A stretch of 64,000 nucleotides of DNA, taken from NCBI GenBank assembly GCA_012838585.1, contig DUPB01000031.1, positions 1,017 through 65,016 of the forward strand, given 5' to 3'. Position numbers and translations under genes: made by a program. Positions 21,371 through 61,722 of the stretch are shown in pieces. This DNA comes from Bacteroidales bacterium (GTDB lineage Bacteria > Bacteroidota > Bacteroidia > Bacteroidales > Dysgonomonadaceae). Position 1 is the first letter of the stretch, and the number at the start of each line of letters is the position of its first letter. Below the pieces are notes generated by a model. The model ran no database searches, was not told the origin of the DNA, and saw nothing but the letters and a program-made list of their open reading frames with translations.

Positions 21371-21973
21371 ATGAAGTTTTTGAAAAGAGCAATTACCATC
21401 CTTATCGTGGCCCTCCTCGTTACCAGCTGCGAAGTTATCCAACGCATCGGGGGGGCCTACCAGCTATCCCAAAGCGAATATCGATACAACTCGCTCAGCA
21501 ACATACAAATAGCGGGAATGAACCTCGGCAACGCATCCAATATCTCCGTTTCTAACCTGGCATCCATTGCCACGATCCTCGCGGGAGGGTCAACACGCCA
21601 AACCATCCCGTTTAGCATGACACTCAATATGGACGTGACCAACCCCAACAATGCGACTGCCTTCCTGGATGCGCTGGATTACAGCATCCTGATCAACGAG
21701 ATGGAGTTCGTGGAAGGGAAGATGGACGTCCCTATCCGCATCGACCCCGGCCAAACCACCCTGCTTTCGATTCCCATCAGCGTCGACCTGAAGAGTCTGA
21801 TGAACCGTTACTCGCAGGAGCGGGTCACCAACGAGATGAGCGCCTTCTTGGGTATCACCCCGAAAGAGACGTCGGTAACGGTCAAGTTGTGGCCCAAGCT
21901 TACGGTCGGCAACACGCTGATCAAGGTGCCCGCACCCATACCCGTGGTATTCAACTTCGGAGGGAAACAATAA
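21371..21973 (+). CDS. LEA_2-domain lipoprotein
   Basis: Lipobox LVTSC; LNMDVTNPNNATAFLDALDY motif typical of LEA type 2. Confidence 0.7.
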   Translation: MKFLKRAITILIVALLVTSCEVIQRIGGAYQLSQSEYRYNSLSNIQIAGMNLGNASNISVSNLASIATILAGGSTRQTIPFSMTLNMDVTNPNNATAFLDALDYSILINEMEFVEGKMDVPIRIDPGQTTLLSIPISVDLKSLMNRYSQERVTNEMSAFLGITPKETSVTVKLWPKLTVGNTLIKVPAPIPVVFNFGGKQ

Positions 21974-25353: not shown

Positions 25354-25374
25354 TTATTCACGTTAAGTATTGCC

Positions 25375-25594
25375 TTTTTAATGCTTTCATGCTCGTCTGA
25401 CGTAAATTATTTGCGACAAGTGAGAGCAAATGCAAAGCTTGCTTTGATTTTGCCGAACGTAGCAAATATCTGTAAGGCGAATTTTGCGTTAAGCAATACG
25501 AGCAGAAAACGAACTTGTTCGTATTATGCCGTTGCGAGCAAAAGTGCAGCTTCACTGAAAGTTTACGAGGTCTTCGCCATGAAAGCATTAAAAA
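25375..25594 (+). repeat. 220-bp palindromic intergenic element (MITE/REP-like), related to the element at 58960-59173
   Basis: 17-bp perfect terminal inverted repeat TTTTTAATGCTTTCATG / CATGAAAGCATTAAAAA. Two internal modules with CTTG-loop hairpins. Blocks of 23/26 and 29/30 identity to the 59-kb element. Confidence 0.75.
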
Positions 25595-57920: not shown

Positions 57921-58940
57921 TCATGAGCTTGCTTTTATGATCTCGCGGGCCGCTTCGATAATGGTATCCCTCATTTTATCCTTGTCGGCCTGCAGCATAT
58001 CAACCTGAAAATCAGGTTCCACACCAAATTCAATGTGCTCCTTCTCGGCATTGAACATGGGCGAAGCAGAAAAGCGAACCGACCAGCCGTTGGGGAGCTC
58101 TGAGGAGAAGGGCAGGCCGCTACCGCCACCCGTCTTGTCACCGATAACGGTCACGTTGGGCGCGTATTTCATGATACTGACAAAGTCATTGGTCGCACTA
58201 TAACAGCCCCGGTTAGTGAGTACCACCACCGGTTTCTGGTAGCGCACCCTATTGGAACTTTCCACGTACTTGGGGTGAAGGGGGGAGAAGTCATTGTGAC
58301 CAGGACCCTTTTTATGGGCAATATACCCCACAAGGGTGCGCTCGTTAAAAAAGCGACTGCTCAACCGCTCCACGTTGGTGAGGTTACCCCCGCCATTGCT
58401 CCTCACGTCGATGATCAGACCGTGGCATAATGCCATCCTATTCAACACCTGATCCAGAGCACCTTCGCCCAAGTCGTTCGAGAAACTCCCGTAATAGAGG
58501 TAGCCCACGTTGTCCTCCAGCACCTTGTACCGCATCCCGGAAGTAATCCCATAGTCGCTACCAAGGTAGCGGGAGCAGATAGACGCATCGAAGTTGACGG
58601 GGTAATCCTCGTACCACTGCCAATAGCGGGTTATATCGTGCGAAGCCGACAGGTTCACGTGACCATCCTTCAGTTCGGCCAACATTAAGCCCATAAGCTT
58701 GAAGAGGGCATCGTTGCCCATCTCTTGATTCACCCTGGGGCTATACTTACGGTACACGGCATCCCAATCGATACCCTTGTAGTCGAAAAAGCAGTAATTC
58801 CTGTCCAAGATGGTCCATAATGCCTCGAAATTTCCCCTCGGGTCATTATCAAAGCGGGCGCTCATATCCCCGCAACTGGGCAGCCAGAAAAGCGGCATGA
58901 GCAGGAGCAGGCTTATCGCGTATGGTTTGCCCCGATTCAT
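57921..58940 (-). CDS. S41 family peptidase lipoprotein (tricorn C1-like plus S41)
   Basis: Lipobox LPSC, NFEALW, LKDGHVNL, IIDVRSNGGG, YSATNDF, GDKTGGGSG. True start MNRGK at 58940; the track start 58973 lies inside the MITE arm. Confidence 0.88.
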   Translation of the reverse strand: MNRGKPYAISLLLLMPLFWLPSCGDMSARFDNDPRGNFEALWTILDRNYCFFDYKGIDWDAVYRKYSPRVNQEMGNDALFKLMGLMLAELKDGHVNLSASHDITRYWQWYEDYPVNFDASICSRYLGSDYGITSGMRYKVLEDNVGYLYYGSFSNDLGEGALDQVLNRMALCHGLIIDVRSNGGGNLTNVERLSSRFFNERTLVGYIAHKKGPGHNDFSPLHPKYVESSNRVRYQKPVVVLTNRGCYSATNDFVSIMKYAPNVTVIGDKTGGGSGLPFSSELPNGWSVRFSASPMFNAEKEHIEFGVEPDFQVDMLQADKDKMRDTIIEAAREIIKASS

Positions 58941-58959
58941 CAGTTTTGAATTTAATGAA

Positions 58960-59173
58960 CTTAACTTTCGCATGTCGTTTACTGTTTGAGCTTTCAGGGC
59001 GAAGACCTCGTAAACTTTCGTGGGAACACATCCTGCGAAGATCGCGTTAAAAAAGAAAAGCTGTTTGAGCGCAAGCGAGTTATTTTTCTTTTAGCAATCA
59101 AGCAGTAGATGGGTCACGAAATTTACGTCAGTCAAGCCTGAAAGCTATTAAACAGTTACATGCGAAAGTTAAG
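58960..59173. mobile_element. 214-bp MITE-like non-autonomous element with 16-bp perfect TIRs and 7-bp target-site duplication
   Basis: Left TIR CTTAACTTTCGCATGT (58960-58975), right TIR ACATGCGAAAGTTAAG (59158-59173), flanked by TAATGAA at 58953-58959 and 59174-59180. No transposase ORF inside. Confidence 0.8.
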
Positions 59174-59231
59174 TAATGAACTCTTCAGCTTTCAAGACGA
59201 GAAAGCACAAAAAGTTTCTCGATCCGGACTC

Positions 59232-59697: not shown

Positions 59698-61722
59698 TTA
59701 TAGTATCTTCTTTACCTGTTCGTAAACGTTCTTGCCGGTATACCCTAACTTCTCATCGAGCACCGTGTAGGGAGCCGAAAAGCCAAAGGAGTTCATACCC
59801 CAAACCTTTCCATCAGCACCCACCAGCCCTTCAAGCGTAACGGGCAGTCCCGCGGTAAGGCCAAATTTCCGCTTCCCCTTGGGCAGTACCGACTCCTGAT
59901 ATTCAACCGGCTGCGACCTGAACAACCCCTCGGAGGGAACGGAGACAATCCGAACCCTCACGCCATCGGCACGAAGCAGGGCAGCACCCTCAACCAGCGT
60001 AGACACCTCCGAACCCGACGCCAGTAAAATCACGTCGAAATCCTCCTCATCTTGTACAATGTAGGCTCCCTTATCGGCTTGGAACGCCTCGTCGATGCGG
60101 GATTCGGCAGCCGGTAGGTCTTTGATATTCTGTCGGCTTAAAATGAGCCCCGTGGGGGTTTGATTGTTTTCAAGCGCCATCTTCCAGGCGACCGTCGTTT
60201 CATGCACATCGGCGGGGCGCAGCACCAACATCGAGTTGCGGCCACTGTGATTCTGCAACTTCTCCATCAGTCGGATTTGTGCCTCTTGCTCCACCGGCTG
60301 GTGGGTAGGACCATCTTCTCCCACCCTGAACGCGTCGTGCGTCCAGATAAAGATAACGGGGGTCTCCATTAACGCGGCAATGCGGATAGAGGGTTTCATG
60401 TAGTCAGAGAAGACGAAGAACGTTCCGCAAGCCGGGATTACCCCGCCATGCAGGCTCATGCCGATGCAGAGGCACGACATGGTGAACTCCGAAACACCCG
60501 CTTGCAGGAAGGCACCGGTGAAATCCCCTTTCGCGAAAGCTTTGGTTTGTTTCAAGAAACCGTCTGTCTTATCGGAGTTAGAAAGGTCGGCCGAGGCCAC
60601 CACCATATTTTCTACCTTCTGTGCCAGCACCCCTAACACGGTTGCAGAGGCTGCACGGGTAGCCGATCCCGATTTCTGCTCAATACCCTTCCAATCGATC
60701 TCGGGCAATTCGCGAGAGAACCACTTCCGCTTCTTCTCCGCCAATTGGGGATGCGCTTTGCCCCACGCCTCCTCCTTCGCTTTTTTAGCGGCAACCAGTT
60801 CGCGTAGCTTCTCTTTCCGTTTTTCATACATCGCTTTAACCTCTTCGGGAATCACGAACGGGTTGGCCGGGTCTCCCCCTAAGGCCTTAATGGTCCGTGC
60901 CACGTCGGCACCGGCCGCGCTCAAGGGTTGCCCATGGGTAGAGATTTGATTTTCAAACGAGCTGTTATCCGCGGTCAATGCCCCTTTCCCCATCACCGTA
61001 TCACCAATGATCAGGGTGGGCTGTCCCTTTACCCCTTTCGCTTCAATGAGCGCTTCCCGTATCTCGTCCACGTCGTTCCCGTCGATCGTGATCACGTACC
61101 ACCCCCACGCTTCGTACTTCGACGCCACATCTTCACTCGTGACCTCATCGGTGGTAGTGGAGAGCTGAATCGTGTTGGAATCGTAAAACATGATCAGGTT
61201 ATCCAGTCCCAAGTGGCCGGCAATGCGACCCACTCCTTGGGATATCTCCTCCTGAATACCCCCGTCAGATATAAAAGCGTAGATCGTTTGGTTCATCACG
61301 TCACCCAGGCGTGCCTGAAGGAACTTGGCAGCGATGGCCGCACCCGCGGCGAAAGCATGCCCTTGACCCAGCGGCCCGGAAGTATTCTCCACACCCCGTT
61401 TCAGGTCGATCTCGGGATGACCCGCCGTGGGACTACCCCACTGACGGAAGTTCTGCAACTCTTCCAGGGAGTATTTTCCACTTAAGCAGAGCACAGAATA
61501 TAGCATGGGCGACATATGCCCCGGGTCAAGGAAAAAGCGATCCCTGGATTCCCAAGTAGGGTTATCGGGATCATACTCCAAAAACTCGCTGTAAAGGACG
61601 TTGATAAAATCTGCACCTCCCATGGCACCACCGGGATGGCCCGATTTTGCTTTCTCTACCATTGATGCCGACAAGATGCGAATCGTATCGGCTGCCTTGT
61701 TCATTAACGCGTTGTCGTTCAT
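59698..61722 (-). CDS. tkt: Transketolase
   Basis: SGHPGG, RDRFFLDPGH, TSGPLGQG, TPP motif SDGGIQEE, GEDGPTHQPVEQ, LRPAD. Confidence 0.96.
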   Translation of the reverse strand: MNDNALMNKAADTIRILSASMVEKAKSGHPGGAMGGADFINVLYSEFLEYDPDNPTWESRDRFFLDPGHMSPMLYSVLCLSGKYSLEELQNFRQWGSPTAGHPEIDLKRGVENTSGPLGQGHAFAAGAAIAAKFLQARLGDVMNQTIYAFISDGGIQEEISQGVGRIAGHLGLDNLIMFYDSNTIQLSTTTDEVTSEDVASKYEAWGWYVITIDGNDVDEIREALIEAKGVKGQPTLIIGDTVMGKGALTADNSSFENQISTHGQPLSAAGADVARTIKALGGDPANPFVIPEEVKAMYEKRKEKLRELVAAKKAKEEAWGKAHPQLAEKKRKWFSRELPEIDWKGIEQKSGSATRAASATVLGVLAQKVENMVVASADLSNSDKTDGFLKQTKAFAKGDFTGAFLQAGVSEFTMSCLCIGMSLHGGVIPACGTFFVFSDYMKPSIRIAALMETPVIFIWTHDAFRVGEDGPTHQPVEQEAQIRLMEKLQNHSGRNSMLVLRPADVHETTVAWKMALENNQTPTGLILSRQNIKDLPAAESRIDEAFQADKGAYIVQDEEDFDVILLASGSEVSTLVEGAALLRADGVRVRIVSVPSEGLFRSQPVEYQESVLPKGKRKFGLTAGLPVTLEGLVGADGKVWGMNSFGFSAPYTVLDEKLGYTGKNVYEQVKKIL

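Follow-up and report, generated by a model that had tools for sequence, protein, structure and literature searches.

The window analysed here is the whole 64,000-nucleotide stretch of contig DUPB01000031.1, which belongs to a Fermentimonas-like genome of 3.24 Mb and 50.4% G+C in a fragmented assembly of 278 contigs (hereafter the source genome). At the locus of interest all neighbouring genes lie on the minus strand, in the order tkt, rpiB, a non-coding element, an S41 peptidase gene, and the genes for an NHL/TIG protein and a SusC-like TonB-dependent receptor. The element is a MITE bounded by terminal inverted repeats (TIRs) and flanked by a target-site duplication (TSD), and a relative of it lies elsewhere in the window. 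The features are as follows.

25374–25594, no strand: related element of the same superfamily, with the M1 shell inverted around the X3 and X2b modules; no outer TIR
57921–58940, minus strand: S41 peptidase gene, 339 aa, with a lipoprotein-type N-terminus; true start at 58940
58953–58959, no strand: left TSD copy, TAATGAA (sequence read directly; family-wide TSD test)
58960–58975, plus strand: left TIR CTTAACTTTCGCATGT, module M0 (the same 16-mer with 0–3 mismatches bounds at least 22 other copies)
58960–59173, no strand: the non-coding element (MITE), 214 bp, forming one long imperfect hairpin (folding z about −9; 50 related loci)
58988–59015, plus strand: left sub-terminal shell M1L, GAGCTTTCAGGGCGAAGACCTCGTAAAC, common to the 25.4-kb element
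59016–59121, plus strand: core module M2, with invariant internal loops GGGRACACATCC / GATGGGTC and central stem AAAAGAAAAG/CTTTTCTTTT
59122–59148, plus strand: right sub-terminal shell M1R, TTTACGTCAGTCAAGCCTGAAAGCTAT
59158–59173, minus strand: right TIR ACATGCGAAAGTTAAG
59174–59180, no strand: right TSD copy, TAATGAA
59181–59231, minus strand: remnant of the native rpiB–S41 spacer, a decayed form of the small hairpin GCTTTCAAGG..CCTTGAAA
59232–59687, minus strand: rpiB (LacAB_rpiB), the upstream gene on the same strand
59698–61722, minus strand: tkt

The TIRs are perfect over 16 bp; the repeat finder reports them as 17 nt at 100% complementarity, one flanking base included, with 182 nt between the arms, and adds a second arm pair, AGCTTTCAGG/CCTGAAAGCT, at 58989–58998 and 59137–59146. 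The centre of the element is AAAAGAAAA/TTTTCTTTT, with the tip CGCTTGCG on the minus strand. Folding predictions give one long hairpin for either strand (−82.8 and −86.7 kcal/mol; z = −9.6 and −8.8), and on both strands none of 200 shuffles was equally stable. The initial annotation had described this architecture, namely perfect TIRs with flanking TAATGAA 19 bp upstream of the S41 start and a central hairpin with a minus-strand tip, and we find all of it in the sequence; the gap between the TIR and the S41 ATG (58940) is 19 nt. By our own estimate, chance alone would produce a perfect 16-mer inverted repeat within 500 bp about 0.007 times per 64 kb, the value for an adjacent 7-bp direct repeat being about 1e-4. 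These low values indicate that the structure at 58953–59180 did not arise by chance, and the many other copies described below settle the point. One conspecific assembly (L014:3448-3762, ENA ERZ925728; corresponding to window 59147–59159) has 14 nt altered inside the rpiB-side TIR: in their place stands the other arm's complement (CGTTTACTGTTTG), such that the arms become more symmetrical; this is either an arm-to-arm conversion within the palindrome or an assembler switch or artefact.

The element has no coding gene, its only open reading frames being those that start in the TIRs and run out into flanking DNA. Two of these, on opposite strands, both begin MRKLS, and the earlier attribution of this coincidence to the inverted repeat is correct, because an ATG lies inside each TIR. 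On the minus strand (window 58941–58973), one such ATG, at 58973, is in frame with the S41 peptidase gene and precedes its start by 11 codons. We place that start at 58940 because orthologues begin MSRGKPY or MSRRKPY; the 350-aa protein (MRKLSSLNSKL-MNRGK...) called instead of the 339-aa one in five of ten public assemblies is probably an annotation artefact.

Scans of the element for a sigma-70-type promoter, an intrinsic terminator or an exact Bacteroidetes TAnnTTTG (−7) box found none, the sole promoter-box-like match being a one-mismatch TAACTTTC in each TIR, facing inward. Rfam 15 (including 6S RNA), applied to the element up to E = 10, returned a single chance-level match to a fungal snoRNA (E = 5.9; 15 bits against a cut-off of 48), and the only gathering-level Rfam match in the window is a tRNA. 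A structured non-coding RNA gene, 6S-like or of another long-hairpin sRNA type, that has become repeated by happenstance could account for the long stable hairpin and its conserved internal loops. We regard this as very improbable: no promoter-like site and no Rfam match at the gathering threshold was found, both strands fold equally well without G:U asymmetry, and the element is one of ∼50 dispersed copies with TSDs.

A BLAST search with the 214-bp element retrieved 50 related loci from the source genome. Four are full-length copies of 211–214 bp at 87–95% identity, others are longer (277–367 bp) or short (68–146 bp), and further loci match the inner part only, at ∼80% identity. The copy closest to that of the window, at C183:19208-19421 of the source genome, differs from it at 11 of 214 positions (5%). 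With up to three mismatches allowed, the 16-nt TIR occurs 73 times in the source genome, as compared to ∼24 occurrences expected, and it bounds at least 22 of the related loci; the genome-wide search for other TIR-bearing copies that had been proposed was thus productive. Many “inner-only” copies still have a recognisable, decayed outer TIR in their flanks, and for this reason we treat all copies as one superfamily. The 25.4-kb element had been called a relative without outer TIRs, and we agree: it has only the sub-terminal shell in common with the window copy (30 nt at 97% and 36 nt at 86%, in inverted order), and no outer TIR is recognisable at its ends. Loci bearing the core are intergenic in 33 of 35 cases and occupy tandem, convergent and divergent spacers alike, with a weak orientation bias (15:5) in the tandem ones. 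Beyond the source genome, the core is detectable in 9 of the 21 genera of Dysgonomonadaceae at 75–86% identity, the full 214-bp type also occurs in the genomes of three congeneric species, G006, G123 and G146, at 93–95% identity, and the same TIR is present in two congeneric MAGs, one of them G006. This census refutes the notion of a chance palindrome beside a chance 7-mer repeat in an AT-rich spacer, to which we assign a negligible probability; it could draw on the AT-richness of the flanks and nothing more, and is opposed by the many copies, the significant TSDs and the folding z of about −9.

The MITE family is also a frequent cause of assembly breaks in the host species, with many public short-read contigs (L158–L164; Logan, ENA) broken off within the C72 copy, after 29–34 nt or, in one case, 135 nt. 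Runs of heptamers (GCTAATT / GCTCATT / GCTAACA) are a further class of simple repeat in source-genome spacers and flank solo X1/X3 hairpin modules at C103:18340-18500, C203:5620-5770, C75:27010-27160 and C214:4640-4680.

For TSDs, the test set comprised the 29 TIR pairs of the source genome that are in proper orientation, and the control paired left flanks with right flanks of other copies. Perfect 7-bp TSDs flank 4 of the 29 pairs (TAATGAA, AAATTAA, TAACGTA and TAAATGA) and perfect 8-bp TSDs flank 5 (TTACCTAA, TTATTTTA, TTATATTA, TGATGTTA and TCAGGTTA), as compared to none at 7 bp and 0.25% at 8 bp in the control. When one mismatch is admitted, 13 of the 29 pairs have a TSD, as compared to 2.5% with shuffled partners. 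The flanking 7-mer had been left exposed to the objection that it might be a chance repeat in AT-rich DNA; these counts identify it as a real target duplication. TSD length is not uniform in the family (7 or 8 bp), and the targets are AT-rich and differ in sequence between copies.

Relatives supply the empty site. The rpiB–S41 arrangement is kept across the genus without the element, in spacers ∼180–280 bp shorter than in the source genome. In G146, whose flanks are 84–88% identical, the alignment reaches both edges of the element, with 27 bp between them. In the spacer alignment, G146 has GAATT-TGTTAAC-CATT, G123 has GAAT-CAATGAT-TATT and the source genome, after removal of the element and one TAATGAA, has GAATT-TAATGAA-CTCT; the target region is present as a single copy at the empty site of both relatives (TGTTAAC and CAATGAT, respectively). 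The small hairpin GCTTTCAAGG..CCTTGAAA is kept beside the empty site in the spacer alignment of both, and in G006 the rpiB stop codon lies only 3 nt from the S41 ATG. These three element-free spacers mark the element as an insertion in the source lineage, and the search for an empty-site allele suggested by the initial annotation has thus succeeded. Two reciprocal pairs were also found: the TSD AGTTGTTG flanks a filled site in G146 and G123 and occurs once, as a single AGTTGTTG, at C227:4389-4396 of the source genome, and GTAAATA flanks a filled site in G146 and is single in source contig C185. Some indels of inner modules have boundary repeats of only 4–6 bp, indicating that not all variation in the family is classical transposition.

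We consider it likely that the element belongs to a family of non-autonomous cut-and-paste or copy-and-paste DNA transposons (MITEs) in this Fermentimonas-like Bacteroidales genome; the ∼50 related loci, the TSDs and the empty sites sustain the earlier proposal of a non-autonomous TIR/TSD element. As we picture the event, a trans-acting transposase would recognise the 16-bp TIRs and cut an AT-rich intergenic target with a stagger of 7–8 bp, the element would be joined at the cut, and gap repair would produce the TAATGAA duplication. Through the insertion, a tight tkt–rpiB–S41 unit acquired a 291-bp spacer, and the hairpin within it (about −84 kcal/mol) extends to 19 nt from the S41 start. A polar effect of the element on S41 is plausible, because a stable hairpin now separates two genes that abut in G006.

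The insertion had been described as recent, and here our results differ. All ten conspecific assemblies in which the place was found, via an identical RpiB protein, carry the element with 0–1 substitutions; these are JGI, ENA and NCBI assemblies built from different samples, and elsewhere three of the ten show a 2% difference. The same holds at two other loci, C72 and C151, where no conspecific contig of sufficient length lacks the copy. Within-species identity at the rpiB–S41 copy is uninformative on constraint, because the strains are identical from ∼59500 downstream, in what is a recombination block. The breakpoint lies inside rpiB, at window ∼59500: the three strains are identical to the window downstream of it, through S41 and beyond, and differ by about 3% upstream of it, in the 5′ part of rpiB, tkt and a methylase gene. 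Orthologues of the C183 copy occur in G146 and G123 between the same flanking sequences, again with AAATTAA as the TSD, and the TIR is near-perfect. Since this copy is common to three species, a perfect TSD and a near-perfect TIR can outlast speciation, and perfect ends are not a sign of youth here. The rpiB–S41 insertion is shown to have occurred after the split from the species of G146, G123 and G006, and before the sampled strains diverged, unless it swept through them. With 5% divergence from its closest copy, it is fixed in the species and not demonstrably recent.

The copies are mosaics. Their parts are the outer TIR shell (M0), the inner shell (M1), the core (M2) and optional hairpin modules of 65–85 bp (X1, X2/X2b and X3) that sit at fixed points in one arm, in both arms or at the centre; modules are also found alone or in tandem. 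Between species, the core is present or absent inside a 32-bp mini-hairpin, GCCTTCAAAG..CTTTGAAGGC, and a mini-hairpin of this type stands beside the empty rpiB–S41 site in G146 and G123. In the large elements, the “inner shell” resembles the two halves of such a 32-bp mini-hairpin, pulled apart. Mini-hairpins of the GCCTTCAAAGCGAAGGTCTTCACTTTGAAGGC type, also 32 bp, are found in spacers at C253:∼21610-21650 of the source genome and at window 59181–59231, and at G146:C2:193847-193975 a 123-bp core is inserted in the loop side of the mini-hairpin. The C151 copy illustrates the gain or loss of a module: L152:1170-1465 (GCA_050951145.1) has an extra 75-bp X1 module relative to C151:14226-14436 of the source genome, with the boundary repeat TGAA, and one strain has this module while two others of the species are without it, indicating that module content changes on a within-species timescale. 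At the same locus, strain GCA_040364315.1 (L153:1215-1260, aligned to source C151:14430-14470) has different DNA beyond the distal end of the copy, with a DNA methylase gene upstream, and the end of the element coincides exactly with a rearrangement or the boundary of an island. Each kind of module is gained and lost independently of the others, the most likely routes being nested insertion, tandem duplication and ectopic conversion between copies.

Paired changes keep the two arms of a copy complementary. At 16 of 59 predicted pairs, double changes have preserved the pairing, and arm complementarity is 10.3 of 12 within a copy as compared to 8.0 across copies. G:U-type mismatches show no strand asymmetry (54 versus 43). 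Together, the paired changes and the lack of G:U strand bias point to constraint or homogenisation at the level of the DNA palindrome rather than to one functional RNA strand. We accordingly rejected strand-specific RNA selection, the orientation bias (15:5) also being just weak. One copy is unusually conserved: the C183 copy (source C183:19208-19421; L023:3875-4088; L132) has 2/214 and 4/214 differences across three species, as compared to 7–8% in its coding flanks (Fisher p = 2e-5 and 2e-3). Other orthologous copies behave differently, those at C128 and C90 having diverged like their flanks and that at C109 more than its flanks. General purifying selection on orthologous copies is therefore not supported.

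These data are what a host-maintained reading must be weighed against, in which the element is a structured intergenic repeat of the REP/BIME or ERIC type, its TIR and TSD are side features, and the hairpin, in mRNA or DNA, serves the cell by stabilising or processing transcripts or by decoupling neighbouring genes. The modular mosaic with units alone or in tandem, the co-varying arms, the core in 9 of 21 genera at 75–86% identity, the C183 copy differing by 1–2% over three species where its flanking coding DNA differs by 7–8%, the failure to find a transposase in the source genome and the weak 15:5 orientation bias in tandem spacers are all in keeping with such maintenance. Yet the TSDs and precise empty sites record true insertion events, the C128, C90 and C109 copies are conserved no better than their flanks or worse, G:U asymmetry (54 versus 43) is absent, the source genome has no Y1/RAYT gene, and terminator-like and promoter-like sites were not found. 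We judge the host-maintained reading unlikely, and rejected a RAYT-associated REP/BIME assignment in particular on the presence of TSDs and the absence of a Y1 (RAYT) gene from the source genome.

The initial annotation had postulated mobilisation in trans by a transposase that recognises CTTAAC ends. No autonomous IS carrying this TIR was found in a genome-wide search of the source genome. Among six transposase families searched there, PF01609 (DDE_Tnp_1), PF12762 (IS1595), PF01610 (ISL3) and PF01797 (Y1) gave no match and PF00665 and PF00872 gave sub-threshold fragments only, none above the cut-off, in an assembly (278 contigs) from which IS copies may have been lost through fragmentation. 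With the same six Pfam families, no autonomous IS with the same or similar TIRs was found in the source genome and three copy-rich relatives, and no TIR pairs at IS-scale spacing occur in the source genome, G006 or G018; Y1 (PF01797) is represented in relatives by pseudogene fragments only. Several candidates were considered and rejected. A 1-kb TIR “pair” at C183:4422-5443 is a half-element abutting an acyltransferase gene, “solo” TIR ends adjoin ordinary genes, and a TIR-like 16-mer in L092 is coincidental, sitting within a transposase coding region. Multi-copy DNA of at least 700 bp in the source genome consists of paralogous surface lipoprotein genes and ordinary genes. The longest dispersed repeats in the assembly are such genes for large surface lipoproteins (C6:192-2519, C27:553-3024 and C216:46558-47282), with collagen-like GxY repeats, leucine-rich repeats and a conserved C-terminal domain. 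The five DDE_Tnp_1 (PF01609)-type IS elements of G006 have ends unrelated to CTTAACTTTCGCATGT, and an IS256-like element of G006, G146 and G123 has ends unrelated to the MITE. The latter (L100:1389-2861 in G006, L101 in G146 and L102 in G123) encodes a 397-aa transposase, has an 8-bp TSD and ends in GRTASTGTT..AGTGTGTCT; it is 96–97% identical between species whose housekeeping genes are 84–88% identical, suggesting recent transfer between species. Plasmid and phage collections held no similar element, and five single 16-mer matches in viral contigs were judged to be chance.

Because the assembly holds no candidate transposase, the family now looks immobile in the source genome. We also entertain, at rather low probability, a different history, in which nested palindromic modules found throughout the Dysgonomonadaceae would spread and be remodelled without a known transposase family, the agent being either an enzyme not yet recognised or a DNA-hairpin process of the host, and some copies in operon spacers would have been co-opted as structured elements with a function; the C183 copy, 98–99% conserved over three species against a flanking-gene difference of 7–8%, would be an example.

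The MITE reading can be set against known systems. The element has every structural mark of a MITE other than a known partner IS: a length of 214 bp, within the ∼50–800 bp of the class, and no coding gene; a TIR longer than the minimal 10–15 bp; copy-specific TSDs; dispersed copies; and single-target empty sites. ERIC (IRU) elements of enterobacteria are imperfect palindromes of ∼127 bp in transcribed intergenic regions, conserved across genera, with longer variants that carry ∼70-bp insertions at fixed internal sites; we know of no transposase for them and of no consistent 7–8-bp TSD. Their hosts belong to another phylum, and the likeness to our family is one of architecture, sequence relatedness not being expected. 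REP/BIME/REPIN sequences are mosaics of short palindromic units, single, paired or arrayed, in intergenic regions and mobilised by RAYT (Y1) transposases; REPs are 20–40 nt long, have no TSD and accompany a RAYT gene. Their mosaic build resembles that of our family, which differs by its TSDs and absent Y1 gene. The Correia elements (NEMIS) of Neisseria are MITEs of 100–160 bp with TIRs that fold as mRNA hairpins, often lie just upstream of genes and can change expression, with no partner IS to our knowledge; they duplicate TA, whereas our family duplicates 7–8 bp, and both sequences and host phylum differ.

Closer by taxonomy, being of the same order Bacteroidales, are the MITEs of Porphyromonas gingivalis, which we compared by their published descriptions only. 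MITE239, MITE700, MITEPgRS/MITE464 and BrickBuilt are small TIR-bounded non-coding elements in tens of copies, and MITEPgRS and BrickBuilt have variable internal repeat modules (PMC2575886, PMC4596501). Their TIRs equal those of the resident ISPg1 and ISPg3, such that the partner is known, whereas none was found for our family; their internal variation is that of a tandem minisatellite, whereas ours is of nested hairpins. A 2024 survey predicted 81,380 distinct MITEs in 46,051 Bacteroidota genomes (PMC11602168), and elements of this kind are thus common in the phylum. The main text of that survey mentions neither Fermentimonas, Petrimonas nor Dysgonomonadaceae, and our literature search found no description of this MITE family. 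The element is a genuine MITE, well supported by the evidence, and apart from its unusual nested-hairpin build it is an ordinary kind of bacterial repeat.

The overall significance of the family is modest. For annotation, its TIR adds a false in-frame start that turns the 339-aa S41 peptidase into one of 350 aa; for assembly, many public contigs terminate in these repeats; and the family offers dated insertion markers for Fermentimonas-like species in anaerobic digesters. For biology, a very stable hairpin splits a once-tight rpiB–S41 junction and provides a natural with/without comparison for polarity effects in Bacteroidales, and the mosaic build, arm co-variation and missing transposase together make the family a reasonable case for studying the persistence of palindromic repeats.
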